Below are positions 9,515-20,659 of a DNA stretch of 64,000 nucleotides, piece by piece. Numbering within the stretch: the first letter of the stretch is position 1; every line of letters begins with the position of its first letter. Where the stretch lies: assembly GCA_902802755.1 (NCBI GenBank), contig CADCNH010000004.1:10139-74138 (forward strand), written 5' to 3'. The notes under the pieces are model-generated. The model worked only from the letters and a program-made list of their open reading frames with translations. It made no database searches and was not told the origin of the DNA. Made by a program: the position numbers and the translations under genes. The stretch comes from an uncultured Bacteroidota bacterium (GTDB lineage: Bacteria; Bacteroidota; Bacteroidia; Bacteroidales; WCHB1-69).

Positions 9515-12500
9515 ATGAAAAAATTTACCTTTTTGATGATTCTCATGCTTTTGGCGGTATGCGGTATGATGGCGCAGGCTCCGGAGAAATTCACCTACCA
9601 GGCAGTGGTGCGAAATGCCAATAATCAACTCATGACGAATACGTTGGTTGGCGTCAGGGTAAGTATTATGCAGGGAAGTTCCACTGGCAGTGTGGTCTAT
9701 TCGGAAACGCAAATGCTGAGCACCAACGCCAACGGTTTGATGACACTGAATATCGGTGATGGGAATATTGTTTATGGCAATTTCAGTACAATAAATTGGG
9801 GAAACGGCCCTTTTTTCCTCAAGTCGGAGATTGACGTTTCTGGCGGCAGTAATTACACGATATCCTCCACGCAGCAGTTGCTGAGTGTGCCGTATGCTTT
9901 GTATTCGAGCAAGGCGGGCAATGTTCCGGCTTTTACGGTGGTGCCTACCGACACAGGCTATGTCATCAGCATCAGCCAAGATGGTACAGCAACACAAACC
10001 TTTGTACTTCGACATGGTGCTCCTGGTCCGCAAGGTCCACAGGGTGAAACCGGTCCGCAGGGTCCACAAGGTCCGCAAGGAGACCCGGGAGCCACTGGTG
10101 CTCAGGGTCCACAGGGAGATCCAGGGGCTACTGGTGCCCAAGGACCACAAGGTGATCCGGGTATCCAAGGTCCGCAAGGTGATCCAGGTGCTACCGGTCC
10201 GCAGGGTCCACAAGGCCAGCAAGGTATTCAGGGTGAACCAGGACCTGCGGGTTTTTCTCCTCAAGTAACTACTATTTCCGCTGGCGATAGCACGGTGGTG
10301 GTGGTTACGGATGCGGAAGCTCAGCATCGTTTTGTGATTTATAACGGTGCCCAGGGTCCACAAGGTGAGCAGGGTATTCAAGGTCCGCAAGGTCCGCAGG
10401 GTGAGACGGGTGCTATCGGTCAGCAAGGTCCGCAGGGTCCTCAAGGTGAGCAGGGTATTCAAGGTCCACAAGGACCTCAGGGTGAGACGGGTGCTACCGG
10501 TCAGCAAGGTCCGCAGGGACCTCAAGGTGAGCAGGGTATTCAAGGTCCGCAAGGTCCGCAGGGTGAGACAGGTGCTACCGGTCAACAAGGTCCGCAGGGA
10601 CCTCAAGGCGAGCAAGGTCCTGCGGGTTTCTCTCCGATGGTGAGCACCATTTCCGCTGGCGACAGTACGGTGTTGGTCATCACAGATGCGGAAATACAGC
10701 ACCGTTTCGTTATCTATAATGGTGCCCAAGGGCCACAAGGTGAGCCCGGTGTAGGAATACCTCAAACACTCTCTCTTGAGGGAAACAACTTGTCGATTTC
10801 TGATGGCAATAGTGTTACCCTTCCGAGTATTCCGACTAATGTGAGCGCCTTTACCAATGATGCGGGCTACCTCACCAGCGACTCCATTCCCACCAATGTC
10901 AGTGCCTTTGCCAACGATGCCAGCTACCTCACCTCCTTCACTGAAACCCAAACTCTCGCCGATGTGACCGCCCAGGGCAACTCCGCCGGCAACCGCCAGC
11001 TGAAGGACGTAGCCGACCCGACCGAAAGCTACGATGCCGTGAACCTGCGCTCGCTTACCCTGATGATAGACTCGGCAAAAAACACCATGCAGCAAATGCA
11101 ACAACAGTGGCTGCAAGCACAGCAGCAATGGCAGGAAACCCAACAGCAGTGGCAGATACAACAGCAACAAATGCAACAACAATGGCAAATGCAGCAAACA
11201 CAACTGCAACAGCAGATTGACAGCTTGACACTGATTCTTAATTCGATAGCAGCCGACACCGCCTTCGCTCTTTGGAACACCTCTGTTGTGAACAAGACGG
11301 CCTGTAGCGCATACGAGTGGCACGGAGAGACCTATACCCAAAGCGGAATCTATCTTTACGGCTTCACCAACACGGACGGCTCCCACAACATAGAGGCCTT
11401 GAATCTGACCATTATTGCGGCCGACTCCATCCATATCCCAAAGGAGGCTTGTGACAGTTATACATGGAATGGCACAACCTACACAGAATCAGGAGACTAT
11501 TATTTAAGACTGACCAACCAATATGGCTGTGACAGTCTCCGGATCCTGCACCTGACTCTTCATCATGGAACACACAATGTGGAAATTGATACCGCTTGCG
11601 ACAGCTATACTTGGCATGGTGTCACCTACCATGAAAGCGGTGTTTATACCTACGCATACTCGAATGAATATGGCTGTGAGAGTGTAGATACCTTGAAGCT
11701 GACCATTTATTACACTCATAAGATGGAGACAGAGATGGCTTGCGAAAGCTATACTTGGCACAATACAACTTACACTACCAGTGGCACTTATACTTACGCC
11801 TATAACAACGAGTACGGTTGTGCCAGTGTGGATACGCTGAAGCTGACAGTCTATCCAGTCACCCACCATACGGAGACGGAGATTGCCTGCGAATCTTATA
11901 TCTGGCATGATTCCACTTACACTACCAGTGGCACCTACACATACACTTATAATGACGAAAATAGCTGCGAGACGGTGGATACCCTGAAACTGACAGTGCT
12001 ATATGGCTGTACTATTGATGAAAAGTCTTGTCCAGGTACACCAATTCTCGTGGATTTTGACAACAATGGTTATAGCACCGTACAGATTGGCAACCAGTGC
12101 TGGATGAGGAACAACCTTCGCACCACGCATTTTGCCGATGGTACATCCATACCTTTCAGCAGCGGGATGTCTGTAGCAGCTCCCTATTATTACGACTACA
12201 ACGACATTAACTATACTGAGTTTACCTTGGCAGAACGGGGAATGCTCTACAACTGGTCCGCCGCCATGCATAGCACATCCTCAGTGCCGTCTAATTCTGT
12301 TGGTGTGCAAGGTGTCTGCCCCACGGGCTGGCACGTACCTTCCGACGGGGAGTGGGCACAACTCATTAACTATGTGAACAGCCAGGAGCAGAACAGATGT
12401 GGTGGCATTGATGGACAGATAGCGAAAACCTTGGCATCCACCACAGGTTGGGATAGGGGCTATTCCGGCTATGAATGTCTCGTGGGCAACTACCAAAATA

Positions 12501-18500: not shown

Positions 18501-20659
18501 CCTTCTTCGCCGCAGGGGGCGCTCCCGAAGTTGCAAACGGGACATCAACCCAGAAGTTGAATTATTCATTCAGTGGCTATCGCAGGGGTATCTGCCCCAT
18601 AGGATGGCACGTGCCCGGAAAAACGGAATGGACACAACTGGCAGCGTATGTATATAGCAACGGCTACCGTTGCAGCGACTGTTCCTATCCGGAACTTGAT
18701 GAGTATAGTGCTTCTTGTATTGTCAAAGCATTGTCCTCCACCACTGGCTGGGAGACCGACGACTATGAGTGCGCGGTGGGCAACGATTTGTCTGCTAACA
18801 ACGCCACGGGTTTCAACGCTATGCCTGCTGGCCGTTATAGTGGCAACAACTATAGCGATTTTGGCGATTACGCTTACTTTTGGACCGCCACTGAGGATTA
18901 TGACCAATATAGTACCTGGGCATATTATCTCAATTGGTCTTATTATGAAACTGACTTTCATTTCCAAAACGAAACTCCAAAAGCCAATAAATTCTCTGTA
19001 CGCTGCGTGAAAGACGACACTTCTGGTGATGGTGGTAGCGACACGGGTTGTACCGGCACACATACTTCAGAGAATGTAAACACTTGCGAATCATACACTT
19101 GGCACGGATATACCTACACAGAAAGCGGCACTTACGTTTTCTTTTACACCAATGCGCAAGGCTGTTCTTGCTCGGAAACGCTTCACCTGACCATCTATGA
19201 AACAGTGCACTCGGTCAACTCAGCCGAAGCCTGCGAATCCTACACCTGGCACGGGCAGCCCTATCTTTCTTCTGGCACATATACATATAACTACGAAAAT
19301 GAATTTGGCTGCGCCAGCACGGAAACACTGAATCTAACCATTTATAATGGCACGCATACAAACTTTTCGGCCCAGGACTGCGAATCCTATACCTGGCATG
19401 GCACCACCTACAACGCAACTGGCTCATACACGTATAACTATACCGATGAGCATGGTTGTGCCTGCTCAGAAACCCTGAATTTGACCATCCAAGAGCATTT
19501 GAATTTGACAACCGCAGCCGGAGCTTGTGAAGAATACAATTGGCGCGGGCAAACACTTACGGCAAGCGGCTCCTATACTGCTGATTATATCAACGATCAT
19601 GGGTGCTCTTGCACGGAAACGCTGAACCTGACCATCTATAATGGTACGCACAACAACTATGCGGAAACAGCTTGTCCAAATTATAATTGGCATGGTGTAG
19701 TTTATGACCAAAGCGGAGTATACACATATTCCTATACCGATGAACATGGCTGCGCAAGTGAGGATGTACTCCACCTGACCATTTCCTCCGATTGTGAATA
19801 TAGCAATCCTTGTCCTGGCACACCTACTGTGACCGACCATGAAGGCAATGTGTATAATACGGTGCAAATCGGTAGCCAATGCTGGACAAAGGAGAACATG
19901 CGCTGCACCACCTCGCCGAGCACGGGCAGCAACCTTATACCCGATTGGATATATTCCTCTGGCTGCTTCGATTCAGAATTCAGCAAGTGTGCGATGTATT
20001 CCGATCGTTTTTCGCAAGATTCTGCATACGGAGTGCTCTACAATTGGTGTGCGGCCATGGATGTTTATAATACGTCTTATCCCGAAATTCATGATGGATC
20101 CTGTGGGGGTAGTGATTCAACAGAAGAATGGATATACACTATCACCAGTCAACACAGAGGCATTTGTCCACAAGGATGGCATGTGCCTTCCACCGATGAA
20201 TTCCATCAATTAACAACTTATCTCTATGATAGCGTCGGATATCAGTGTGGCAATGACTGTTATGCCTTCATTATGGGAAACACAGTCAACTGCATTGCCA
20301 AGGCGTTGGCAGATACAACGGGATGGAACATTGACGATAACACATCAGGGACACCTGTCTGGATGGGAGGAACCTGTTCTGTTGGCTACGACCTATCCTC
20401 CAACAACGCCACAGGATTCAGTGCGTTGCCCGCCGGATTTGCAGGAGGAGGTCACGGCGATCAAATAGACGATTACCATTGGATTTTCTACCCCTACGTT
20501 TACCGTTCCGGTGAAAGAGCCTGCTTCTACTCTTCCACTTCTACTCCCTCTTCCGGCCAGTACTACTTTCAAATAGACTATGATACAGCCGCAGTGAAAC
20601 ATCAAGATGATATTATTGGAATCAAAGGACATTCCGTCCGCTGTGTGAAGGATGAATAA
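9515..20659 (+). CDS. Giant secreted fibre-like protein 1 (3714 aa): SVPYAL N-domain, collagen repeats, Q-rich coiled coil, 21 Cys-containing ~49-aa repeats, FN3/Ig-like domains and 7 Fib_succ_major (FISUMP) domains
   Basis: Sec signal peptide; GXY runs; seven copies of D..GN.Y.TV.IG.QCW...N.R ... G.CP.GWHVP ... [13 protein letters not shown]...GC.SVDTL.LTI repeats. Confidence 0.9.
10016..10756 (+). repeat. Collagen-like Gly-X-Y tract with two beta-rich interruptions
   Basis: (GPQ/GEQ/GET/GAT)n with 63-bp repeated units; interruptions [28 protein letters not shown]. Confidence 0.9.

Follow-up and report, generated by a model that had tools for sequence, protein, structure and literature searches.

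Two giant genes in a 64-kb stretch of DNA from an uncultured Bacteroidota bacterium (Bacteroidales; GCA_902802755.1, contig CADCNH010000004.1, here contig C4) encode proteins with a signal peptide, a conserved N-terminal domain, a collagen-containing stalk, and seven FISUMP domains in series. We consider it rather probable that these two proteins, A and B, are modular fibre adhesins from a very large, uncharacterised family in Bacteroidota, related to the mosaic adhesive trimer (MAT) fibres of Bdellovibrio bacteriovorus; this grade covers the whole explanation, including the mechanism proposed below. The whole 64-kb stretch is called the window, and coordinates without a contig name refer to it. 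The assembly comprises 2.56 Mb in 69 contigs, with 44% G+C and an estimated completeness of 88%. The conserved N-terminal domain is called the head. The gene upstream of B encodes a small protein with the C-terminal domain (CTD) of type IX secretion system (T9SS) cargo. The main features are as follows.

9515..20659, plus strand: gene A, 3714 aa; signal peptide, head, two collagen segments, a Q-rich coiled coil, and seven FISUMP domains with arrays of a Cys repeat and units resembling fibronectin type III (FN3) or immunoglobulin (Ig) domains between them.
9575..10012, plus strand: head of A, mature residues 21-166; a core of ~116 aa ending in SVPYALY, then a small beta unit.
44368..53895, minus strand: gene B, ~3175 aa; signal peptide, head, collagen segments that include eight tandem copies of a 43-aa repeat, fibre motifs, and seven FISUMP domains.
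53386..53835, minus strand: head of B, at the mature N-terminus.
53985..54473, minus strand: small partner gene, 162 aa, 89 nt upstream of gene B.

The reading frame of B is open from a GTG at 53928, and the ATG at 53895 (MRKL...), which yields a normal signal peptide, is the probable start.

The head connects A and B to each other and to the MAT family. The earlier note on this DNA, made from the sequence alone, had proposed that the first ~170 residues of the two proteins are homologous, and they are 57% identical over 166 aa (E 1e-72). A search with the 146-aa head retrieved 23,289 cluster representatives at E<=1e-3 and 18,348 at E<=1e-10 (among 1.84 billion), and 7214 of 8000 scored candidates passed E<=1e-5 in a word-indexed search. 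Of the 150 best matches, 148 start in the first 39 residues of the protein, immediately behind the signal peptide. Among the 120 matches listed, most carry PF09603, with or without collagen, and the few with names are "hypothetical" or "FISUMP domain-containing" proteins from Bacteroidales metagenome-assembled genomes. No Pfam model covers the head; Big_1 appears at E 0.006-0.03 at most. The NCBIfam model Bdello_MAT_N (NF053851), however, matches 25 of 25 mature heads taken from 25 loci (E<=0.01, best 5.9e-12). Because all of these heads match this model and no other family is common to them, the similarity is taken as homology; it points to a head related to the MAT N-domain in proteins that are nevertheless not members of the Bdellovibrio subfamily. 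The MAT N-domain is described as invariant, as having no homologues in the PDB, and as presumed to bind an unidentified surface element (PMC10769870).

The structural model of the head (predicted local distance difference test, pLDDT, 81.6) is an Ig-like sandwich (residues 1-102) with a short helix behind it, at SVPYALYA, and then a small beta unit. The fold search returned generic Ig-like sandwiches only (best Z 7.5), so that no specific relative can be named, and a sequence search of the PDB gave no significant match for either the head or the FISUMP profile. The head also occurs as four to six tandem copies in one protein (P0125, 916 aa; G051:C598, an open reading frame (ORF) of 917 aa) and is thus not always a single N-terminal module.

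The distal parts of both proteins carry the FISUMP domains. The count of seven in each, as originally claimed, is borne out by Pfam, where Fib_succ_major (PF09603) matches seven stretches in A (673.4 bits, E 3.5e-204) and seven in B (669.6 bits, E 5.1e-203; cut-off 33.9), and by NCBIfam TIGR02145 (615 bits for A and 588 for B; cut-off 41.65). Except where stated, the boundaries below are from Pfam and alignment.

12023..12718, plus strand: FISUMP A1.
13076..13813, plus strand: FISUMP A2.
14705..15361, plus strand: FISUMP A3.
15710..16348, plus strand: FISUMP A4, from alignment; the domain chosen for the structure model.
17174..17896, plus strand: FISUMP A5.
18260..19015, plus strand: FISUMP A6.
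19805..20656, plus strand: FISUMP A7, the C-terminus of A.
50266..50922, minus strand: FISUMP B1.
49537..50223, minus strand: FISUMP B2.
48703..49428, minus strand: FISUMP B3.
47581..48273, minus strand: FISUMP B4.
46507..47289, minus strand: FISUMP B5.
45658..46365, minus strand: FISUMP B6.
44371..44916, minus strand: FISUMP B7, a short form without the central helix segment; the C-terminus of B.

The domains are 213-283 aa long, except for B7 (182 aa), and their pairwise identity is 29-62% (mean 43%). Their alignment has 22 invariant columns, including C, QCW, N, G.CP..WH.P, GF, and RC. Four cysteine positions are invariant, and two further positions are kept in at least 90% of the domains. 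The proposal that all 14 domains share one scaffold therefore stands for these columns and their motifs, but the KAL motif (AKAL) is found in only 13 of the 14, and B7 lacks the central segment. The most variable stretch of 56 contiguous residues corresponds to residues 151-206 of the 213-aa reference, with a mean entropy of 2.33 bits versus 1.39 bits for residues 1-150; over 34 domains from this genome, 2.57 and 1.50 bits are obtained. The last seven residues (SVRC.RD) are conserved again. Strong divergence had been placed in the last ~60 residues of the domain. The entropy peak agrees with this, but insertion hot spots also follow residues 42 and 78, so that variability is not confined to the end of the domain.

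The fold of the FISUMP domain was modelled on A4 using an alignment with 34 paralogues (pLDDT 97.7). In an exhaustive VIA-align search, the top structures were PvdO (Z 9.1; root-mean-square deviation (rmsd) 4.0, 161 residues aligned), TvpA (9.0), CarF (8.8), and the lectin domain of the InvE adhesin (8.5). These were followed by PorK/N (8.3), the C-terminal domain of Lcl (7.9), pFGE (7.9), the MAT tip Bd2740 (7.5), TaqVP (7.3), and Mtd (6.3), and beyond Mtd by about 30 C-type lectins. Foldseek against the PDB gave nothing at E<=1e-3, the best match being the Lcl C-terminal domain (0.045). The Z values are moderate, but the assignment of the model to the fold of C-type lectins and the formylglycine-generating enzyme (FGE) is sound because every top structural match belongs to this one fold class. 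A relation to this fold had been proposed from the sequence, and the matches to the model include TvpA, TaqVP, and Mtd, which are variable proteins of diversity-generating retroelements (DGRs). Among the MATs, one with a trimeric C-type-lectin tip has been described (PMC10769870).

Collagen repeats form triple helices, and both stalks contain such repeats (PF01391; 80.4 bits in A and 83.6 in B, cut-off 27.2). The segments of the A stalk and its spacers are as follows.

10016..10633, plus strand: collagen segments of A, residues 168-248 and 278-373; 27 and 32 Gly-X-Y triplets with a short beta unit between.
11021..11320, plus strand: Q-rich, heptad-like (coiled-coil) segment of A, residues ~503-602; the sole such segment in the A stalk.
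11297..12022, plus strand: Cys-repeat array 1 of A, 5 copies.
~14102-14695, plus strand: Cys-repeat array 2 of A, 4 copies.
16415-17155, plus strand: Cys-repeat array 3 of A, 5 copies.
17951-18247, plus strand: Cys-repeat array 4 of A, 2 copies.
19079-19804, plus strand: Cys-repeat array 5 of A, 5 copies.

The Cys repeat of A is a 49-aa unit with two cysteines (C.SYTW.G..YT.SG.Y ... GC.S...L.LT). Its 21 copies keep an exact period of 49 residues, and there are none in B. The repeat has no Pfam family, and an Atlas search led only to unnamed Bacteroidota clusters; it resembles a small, disulfide-bonded spacer domain of a kind not yet described. In B, Gly-X-Y runs include stretches of 17 and 24 triplets. 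Short, heptad-like coiled-coil segments poor in Pro and Gly (xIDSLQ...MQ) precede most of its FISUMP domains, and FN3-like and CUB-like units precede the last. The earlier contrast between the spacers of the two proteins thus holds for the Cys repeats of A and the heptad-like segments of B, whereas the FN3/Ig labels in A rest on weak Pfam matches (fn3 E 0.11, Ig_7 0.011, NAR2 0.09). Within the B stalk (~52200-53250, residues ~230-570), eight near-identical 43-aa units, each with seven Gly-X-Y triplets, stand in tandem, which suggests a recent tandem duplication; the sister species G009 differs in this repeat region.

The origin of the FISUMP diversity can be traced in the counterpart genes of four congeneric genomes (G009, G005, G004, and G002), which have between 4 and 8 FISUMP domains each. 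B is collinear with its G009 counterpart: 7 of 7 domains are 91-100% identical, G009 has one extra domain in front, and the variable stretch is as conserved as the scaffold in 6 of the 7. A and its G009 counterpart are 94% identical over residues 1-420, and none of the seven domains exceeds 62%. The G005 counterpart of A has the opposite pattern: the head is only 67-83% identical, and residues 661-1740 and 2881-3300 are 95% and 90% identical. By domain, A1, A2, and A6 have counterparts of 96-97% identity in G005, and A3, A4, A5, and A7 have none above 54%. In G004, G005, and G002, the head of the B counterpart and the small gene upstream are retained, but no domain exceeds 61%. Because head and distal similarity are discordant among these genomes, they give direct evidence that the head and the distal cassettes recombine independently. 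Each FISUMP domain, once present, is stably inherited. The idea of an interchangeable base, put forward in the earlier note, is strongly supported by this mosaic similarity and by the many kinds of distal part found behind the same head.

A different source of diversity would be a DGR that diversifies the 14 domains, as it does for DUF1566/Fib_succ_major targets elsewhere. Among DGR targets, Fib_succ_major and DUF1566 are placed together in the CLec2 class (PMC5758913), in which the diversified C-terminus is reported to be exposed (PMC5758913, PMC4159848), and both the fold class and the C-terminal variability of the FISUMP domains are the same as in these targets. However, no RVT_1 (reverse transcriptase) match was found in this 88%-complete genome, where the template repeat got no separate search. 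Furthermore, the differences between paralogues include indels and extend over the full length instead of being limited to adenine-templated positions, and the B domains are kept in the sister species in their variable stretch as well as in their scaffold. The missing RVT_1 match and the conservation of the B domains argue for cassette shuffling as the origin of the diversity, and DGR mutagenesis is extremely improbable.

The small gene upstream of B leads to a second, more tentative proposal. Its product has a signal peptide, a conserved N-module of ~50 aa (GG.A.GSGG.V.Y.VGQ ... GVQQP[FY]EI), and a type A T9SS CTD (34.6 bits against a cut-off of 23 for NCBIfam TIGR04183; 34.4 against 27 for Pfam PF18962). 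The mature part is only ~55 aa long, with neither an enzymatic nor an adhesive domain. A terminator-like site lies just upstream of the small gene, but there is none between it and B. The SprA translocon is present in this genome (2494 bits). The search for the GldM family gave no match anywhere, controls included, and was uninformative. This genome has at least 15 other CTD proteins and no second small one of the same kind.

The small gene is paired with a head gene across the phylum. In 60 related genomes, there are 26 loci with a full-length homologue of the small protein (29-100% identity). A head gene follows directly downstream on the same strand, within a 1.5-kb flank, in 25 of them, and the sole miss is cut by a contig end. 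In one of the 25 loci, the best head match lies upstream, but another head is also listed directly downstream. By comparison, 0 of 4 control loci matching the CTD only have a head domain. Among 250 genomes drawn evenly from the phylum, 16 small genes (E<=1e-20) were found in ten further genomes of the same and other classes, and all 16 are followed by a head gene. Of the 42 loci combined, 41 have the small gene directly upstream of a head gene. This order and the shared strand persist across several classes, though identity to the small protein drops to about 30%. The gap is often a few nucleotides (<10 nt in 5 of the loci inspected), and no other neighbour of the pair is conserved beyond near-identical genomes. 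All 28 genomes with the small protein in the tables from the related-genome search also have head genes. The distal parts behind paired heads are varied (FISUMP, DUF1566-like, collagen, and phage-fibre-like motifs), so that the small gene pairs with the head, not with FISUMP. This synteny supports a link between the small CTD gene and the fibres that had been suggested from the sequence.

In this genome, four or five genes with the SVPYAL head stand against one small CTD gene, a comparison that had been proposed as a check. Besides A and B, they are a minimal paralogue with a head, a short coil, and one FISUMP domain (C23:50392-51687), a divergent paralogue (C9:53011-54561), and a third giant with four FISUMP domains and many FN3-like units (C32:3-6215, at least 2071 aa), of which the contig start leaves only the tail of the head region. 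No small CTD gene adjoins A. One small gene for four or five head genes fits its use in trans, as far as gene counts go. The sprA gene (C23:40514-47563) lies ~3 kb from the minimal head paralogue, which may be a coincidence. The N-module is also found at the N-terminus of large proteins in other genomes (G028:C64, 2865 aa; G010:C220, 1977 aa; G027:C47, 800 aa), at least one of which has a CTD; none of them is listed beside a head gene.

We propose the following mechanism for the fibres. Each chain would be exported by Sec, its signal peptide having Gln at +1, and the Ig-like conserved head would be the cell-proximal attachment module. The chain would trimerise via the collagen triple helix and the coiled coils. 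The seven different disulfide-containing FISUMP domains would be displayed as binding modules, with specificity in the ~56 variable residues before the conserved last strand. Since collagen repeats form triple helices, a fibre may be a trimer, which would carry as many as 21 binding domains; these would be of seven kinds per fibre and of 14 kinds over both genes. This repertoire would be built and renewed by recombining whole cassettes (spacer plus FISUMP) and by recombining the head with the distal part. Candidate ligands are the glycans of other microbes, mucus of the host, and plant fibre. The decoy role named in the earlier note is no more than a conjecture.

Proteins with a type A CTD are exported by the T9SS, lose the CTD, and are linked to anionic lipopolysaccharide (LPS). 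The small protein would follow this route as T9SS cargo, and its ~55-aa N-module, linked to surface LPS after removal of the CTD, would dock the head. Alternatively, the small protein may escort the fibre, which has no CTD of its own, through the T9SS. It would act in cis for B and in trans for A, for the C23 and C9 genes, and for the truncated C32 gene. Anchoring of type A cargo to anionic LPS has been described, for example, in P. gingivalis (PMC8545088, PMC5562754). That the small T9SS protein serves MAT-like fibres as a dedicated adaptor for docking or export, that its N-module is the surface element gripping the head, and that one adaptor gene serves several fibres in trans are together a possibility that falls well short of an expectation. 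Complex prediction for the head and the small protein gave a score of 0.18 (mark 0.32), which is no evidence either way.

Several observations weigh against the explanation as a whole. Both proteins score below the curated cut-off of Bdello_MAT_N (60 bits), at 32.3 for whole A, 27.6 for whole B, and 35.7 for the mature head of B. The clustering of variability is established in one dimension only, not on a three-dimensional surface. The distal 3100 residues of A have no recognisable trimerising segment, so that the distal arms may be separate chains. In the same Pfam and NCBIfam scans, A and B, which both end in FISUMP, have no T9SS CTD, and neither has a lipobox. With a Sec signal only and no recognised outer-membrane export signal, A and B could be periplasmic or envelope-internal structural proteins that are never displayed. 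This is quite improbable, since collagen stalks, conserved cysteines, lectin-fold domains, and lengths above 3000 aa are typical of surface fibres, the conserved neighbour is T9SS cargo, and the homologous MAT fibres are reported to be located at the surface (PMC10769870). Rather than as adhesins for cells or host surfaces, the fibres could act as scaffolds, polysaccharide-binding or cohesin-like, by which plant fibre or enzymes are held at the cell. TIGR02145 occurs in 17-119 copies per Fibrobacteres genome, and for Fibrobacter the domain is discussed, with proposals cited, as cellulose-binding or as a cohesin analogue, not as a cell adhesin (PMC4704652), which also counts against an adhesin. 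The expansion is large here too (33 ORFs with at least 49 full-length domains), and the only RNA run with related fragments, a weak lead, is labelled bovine gut. However, no dockerin-like partners or glycoside hydrolases adjoin A or B, whose neighbours are housekeeping genes, and the nearest structural matches with a known binding role are adhesins for cells or proteins and receptor-binding proteins of phages or DGRs. We regard a scaffold as unlikely, and it differs from an adhesin in the ligand only; either way, A and B would be multivalent binding fibres.

For the small gene, the alternative is that it has no physical link to the fibres, and that co-regulation or a shared ancestral operon placed a protein with its own surface role beside the head. 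Among head-bearing genomes, 11 of 39 lack a full-length homologue of the small protein, including G010 (96% complete, 11 strong head matches), and the small gene adjoins only about a quarter of 167 head matches, leaving about three quarters without such a neighbour. These figures also count against an adaptor, because they mean that, short of action in trans or analogues not yet recognised, the partner is not obligatory for each fibre. In addition, the N-module starts the large T9SS proteins of G028, G010, and G027 mentioned above. Against this alternative stand the order and strand kept in 41 of 42 loci across several classes, the short gaps, and the absence of any other gene conserved around the pair. 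By established practice, which is not a test, persistence of this kind usually marks products that interact. A small gene with no physical link to the fibres is therefore doubtful, though it keeps an appreciable chance.

The surroundings of A and B are those of an ordinary chromosome. Window neighbours include genes for glutamine synthetase, an Asp/Lys-type tRNA synthetase, H+-pyrophosphatase, IMP dehydrogenase, FtsZ/FtsA, and PyrBI, among others, and a divergent AraC-type regulator lies upstream of A. A phage or mobile origin of A and B was rejected, since the neighbours are housekeeping genes and no phage or mobile genes lie around either. The window contains two more T9SS cargo genes, both on the minus strand: an S8 subtilase with Por_Secre_tail (26869-29043) and a protein that combines a lamin-tail domain with a sorting domain of the CHU_C type (62908-63996). 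For RNA, one run labelled as a bovine gut metatranscriptome contained 0.05 of the sampled words. From the same run came seven short contig pieces whose likeness to stretches of the head, of the small gene, and of a collagen segment is 90-99%. These pieces come from relatives and are too little to show transcription of A, B, or the small gene.

FISUMP domains are displayed in other forms in the same genome. A hidden Markov model of the 14 domains matched 33 ORFs, in which at least 49 domains are full-length, 35 of them outside the window. About ten are single-domain proteins (270-355 aa) with lipoprotein-type signals, in which the Cys is followed by Lys/Asp/Glu-rich residues; they lie on contigs C12, C13, C8, C42, C29, C5 (two), C3, C27, and C21. 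A Lys-Asp/Glu motif after the lipoprotein Cys is a surface-export signal, and these proteins would be a second display mode of the same domain. A third class of FISUMP proteins has another conserved domain after the signal peptide (TLTFTA.D...HYVQ.D.V.I.NLT.GWQE..YWPDT) and is found at C28:14354-18370, C9:12749-15754, C16:41878-44316, C23:26019-27458, and C13:51951-53405.

The system can be compared with several known ones. Like the MAT fibres of B. bacteriovorus, as described in PMC10769870, A and B have a conserved N-domain after the signal peptide, a long stalk, swappable adhesive distal domains, and many paralogues per genome, and Bd2740 has a tip of C-type-lectin fold which resembles the FISUMP model. 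Unlike in the MATs, the head scores under the NCBIfam cut-off, the stalk consists of collagen and coiled coil instead of beta-helix, and seven binding domains stand in series in place of one tip. No S74 protease or chaperone domain is seen in A or B, the host is a non-predatory-type Bacteroidales bacterium with a T9SS, and the small T9SS-CTD neighbour has no reported Bdellovibrio counterpart. A similar order of parts is seen in Lcl of Legionella pneumophila (PDB 8q4e), in which a collagen-like stalk is followed by a DUF1566/CLec-type C-terminal domain (rmsd 2.8 over 102 aligned residues). The NCBIfam model adhesin_Lcl matches the collagen part, but at 117 bits, far below its cut-off of 500, and Lcl has one binding domain, another N-terminus, and another secretion route.

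The DGR variable proteins TvpA (2y3c), TaqVP (5vf4), and Mtd (1yu0) share the fold and a variable stretch just before a conserved C-terminal strand. However, the diversity of A and B lies in fixed paralogues and cassettes and is kept between sister species, and no reverse transcriptase was found here. The major paralogous domain proteins of Fibrobacter succinogenes belong to the same family (TIGR02145/PF09603) and likewise form a big paralogous expansion with many lipoproteins (PMC5758913, PMC4704652), but in A and B, sets of seven such domains follow a MAT-like head on a collagen fibre. The small protein resembles type A T9SS cargo, such as that of P. gingivalis, in its above-cut-off CTD and in the presence of SprA in the genome; it differs from typical cargo in its short mature part, and the fibres themselves have no CTD.

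The combination of FISUMP and collagen is already common in databases, where it is annotated by domain name only, and giant size also occurs elsewhere, with relatives of 4709 aa among the matches listed. Three points are new as far as we have searched: the head as a MAT-type N-domain that would form an enormous Bacteroidota family without a Pfam model, the serial form of seven tips on one stalk with demonstrable cassette exchange, and the phylum-wide pairing with a tiny T9SS cargo. The literature search found no paper with the head or N-module motifs, none on MAT-type fibres in Bacteroidota, and none on a partner-mediated T9SS tether, export, or display; Supplementary Tables 3 and 4 of PMC10769870, which cover homologues elsewhere, lay outside this search and may list examples from Bacteroidota.

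In Fibrobacteres and in the Bacteroidales of gut and rumen, few unexplained domains have expanded as much as FISUMP. The link to MAT gives a working model for these proteins, with a conserved head and swappable adhesive modules. The mosaic between sister species means that the bacterium can re-deal its repertoire of binding specificities without a mutagenic retroelement. How the MAT fibres are held at the surface is left open in PMC10769870, and the small T9SS neighbour is a concrete candidate for holding such fibres on, or bringing them to, the Bacteroidota surface. If the small protein is indeed an adaptor, T9SS display by way of a partner (a "hitch-hiker" or tether route) would be seen here for the first time. 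A family of over 20,000 sequence clusters would then have a known principle of anchoring, and the long-sought surface element of the MATs would be the N-module.

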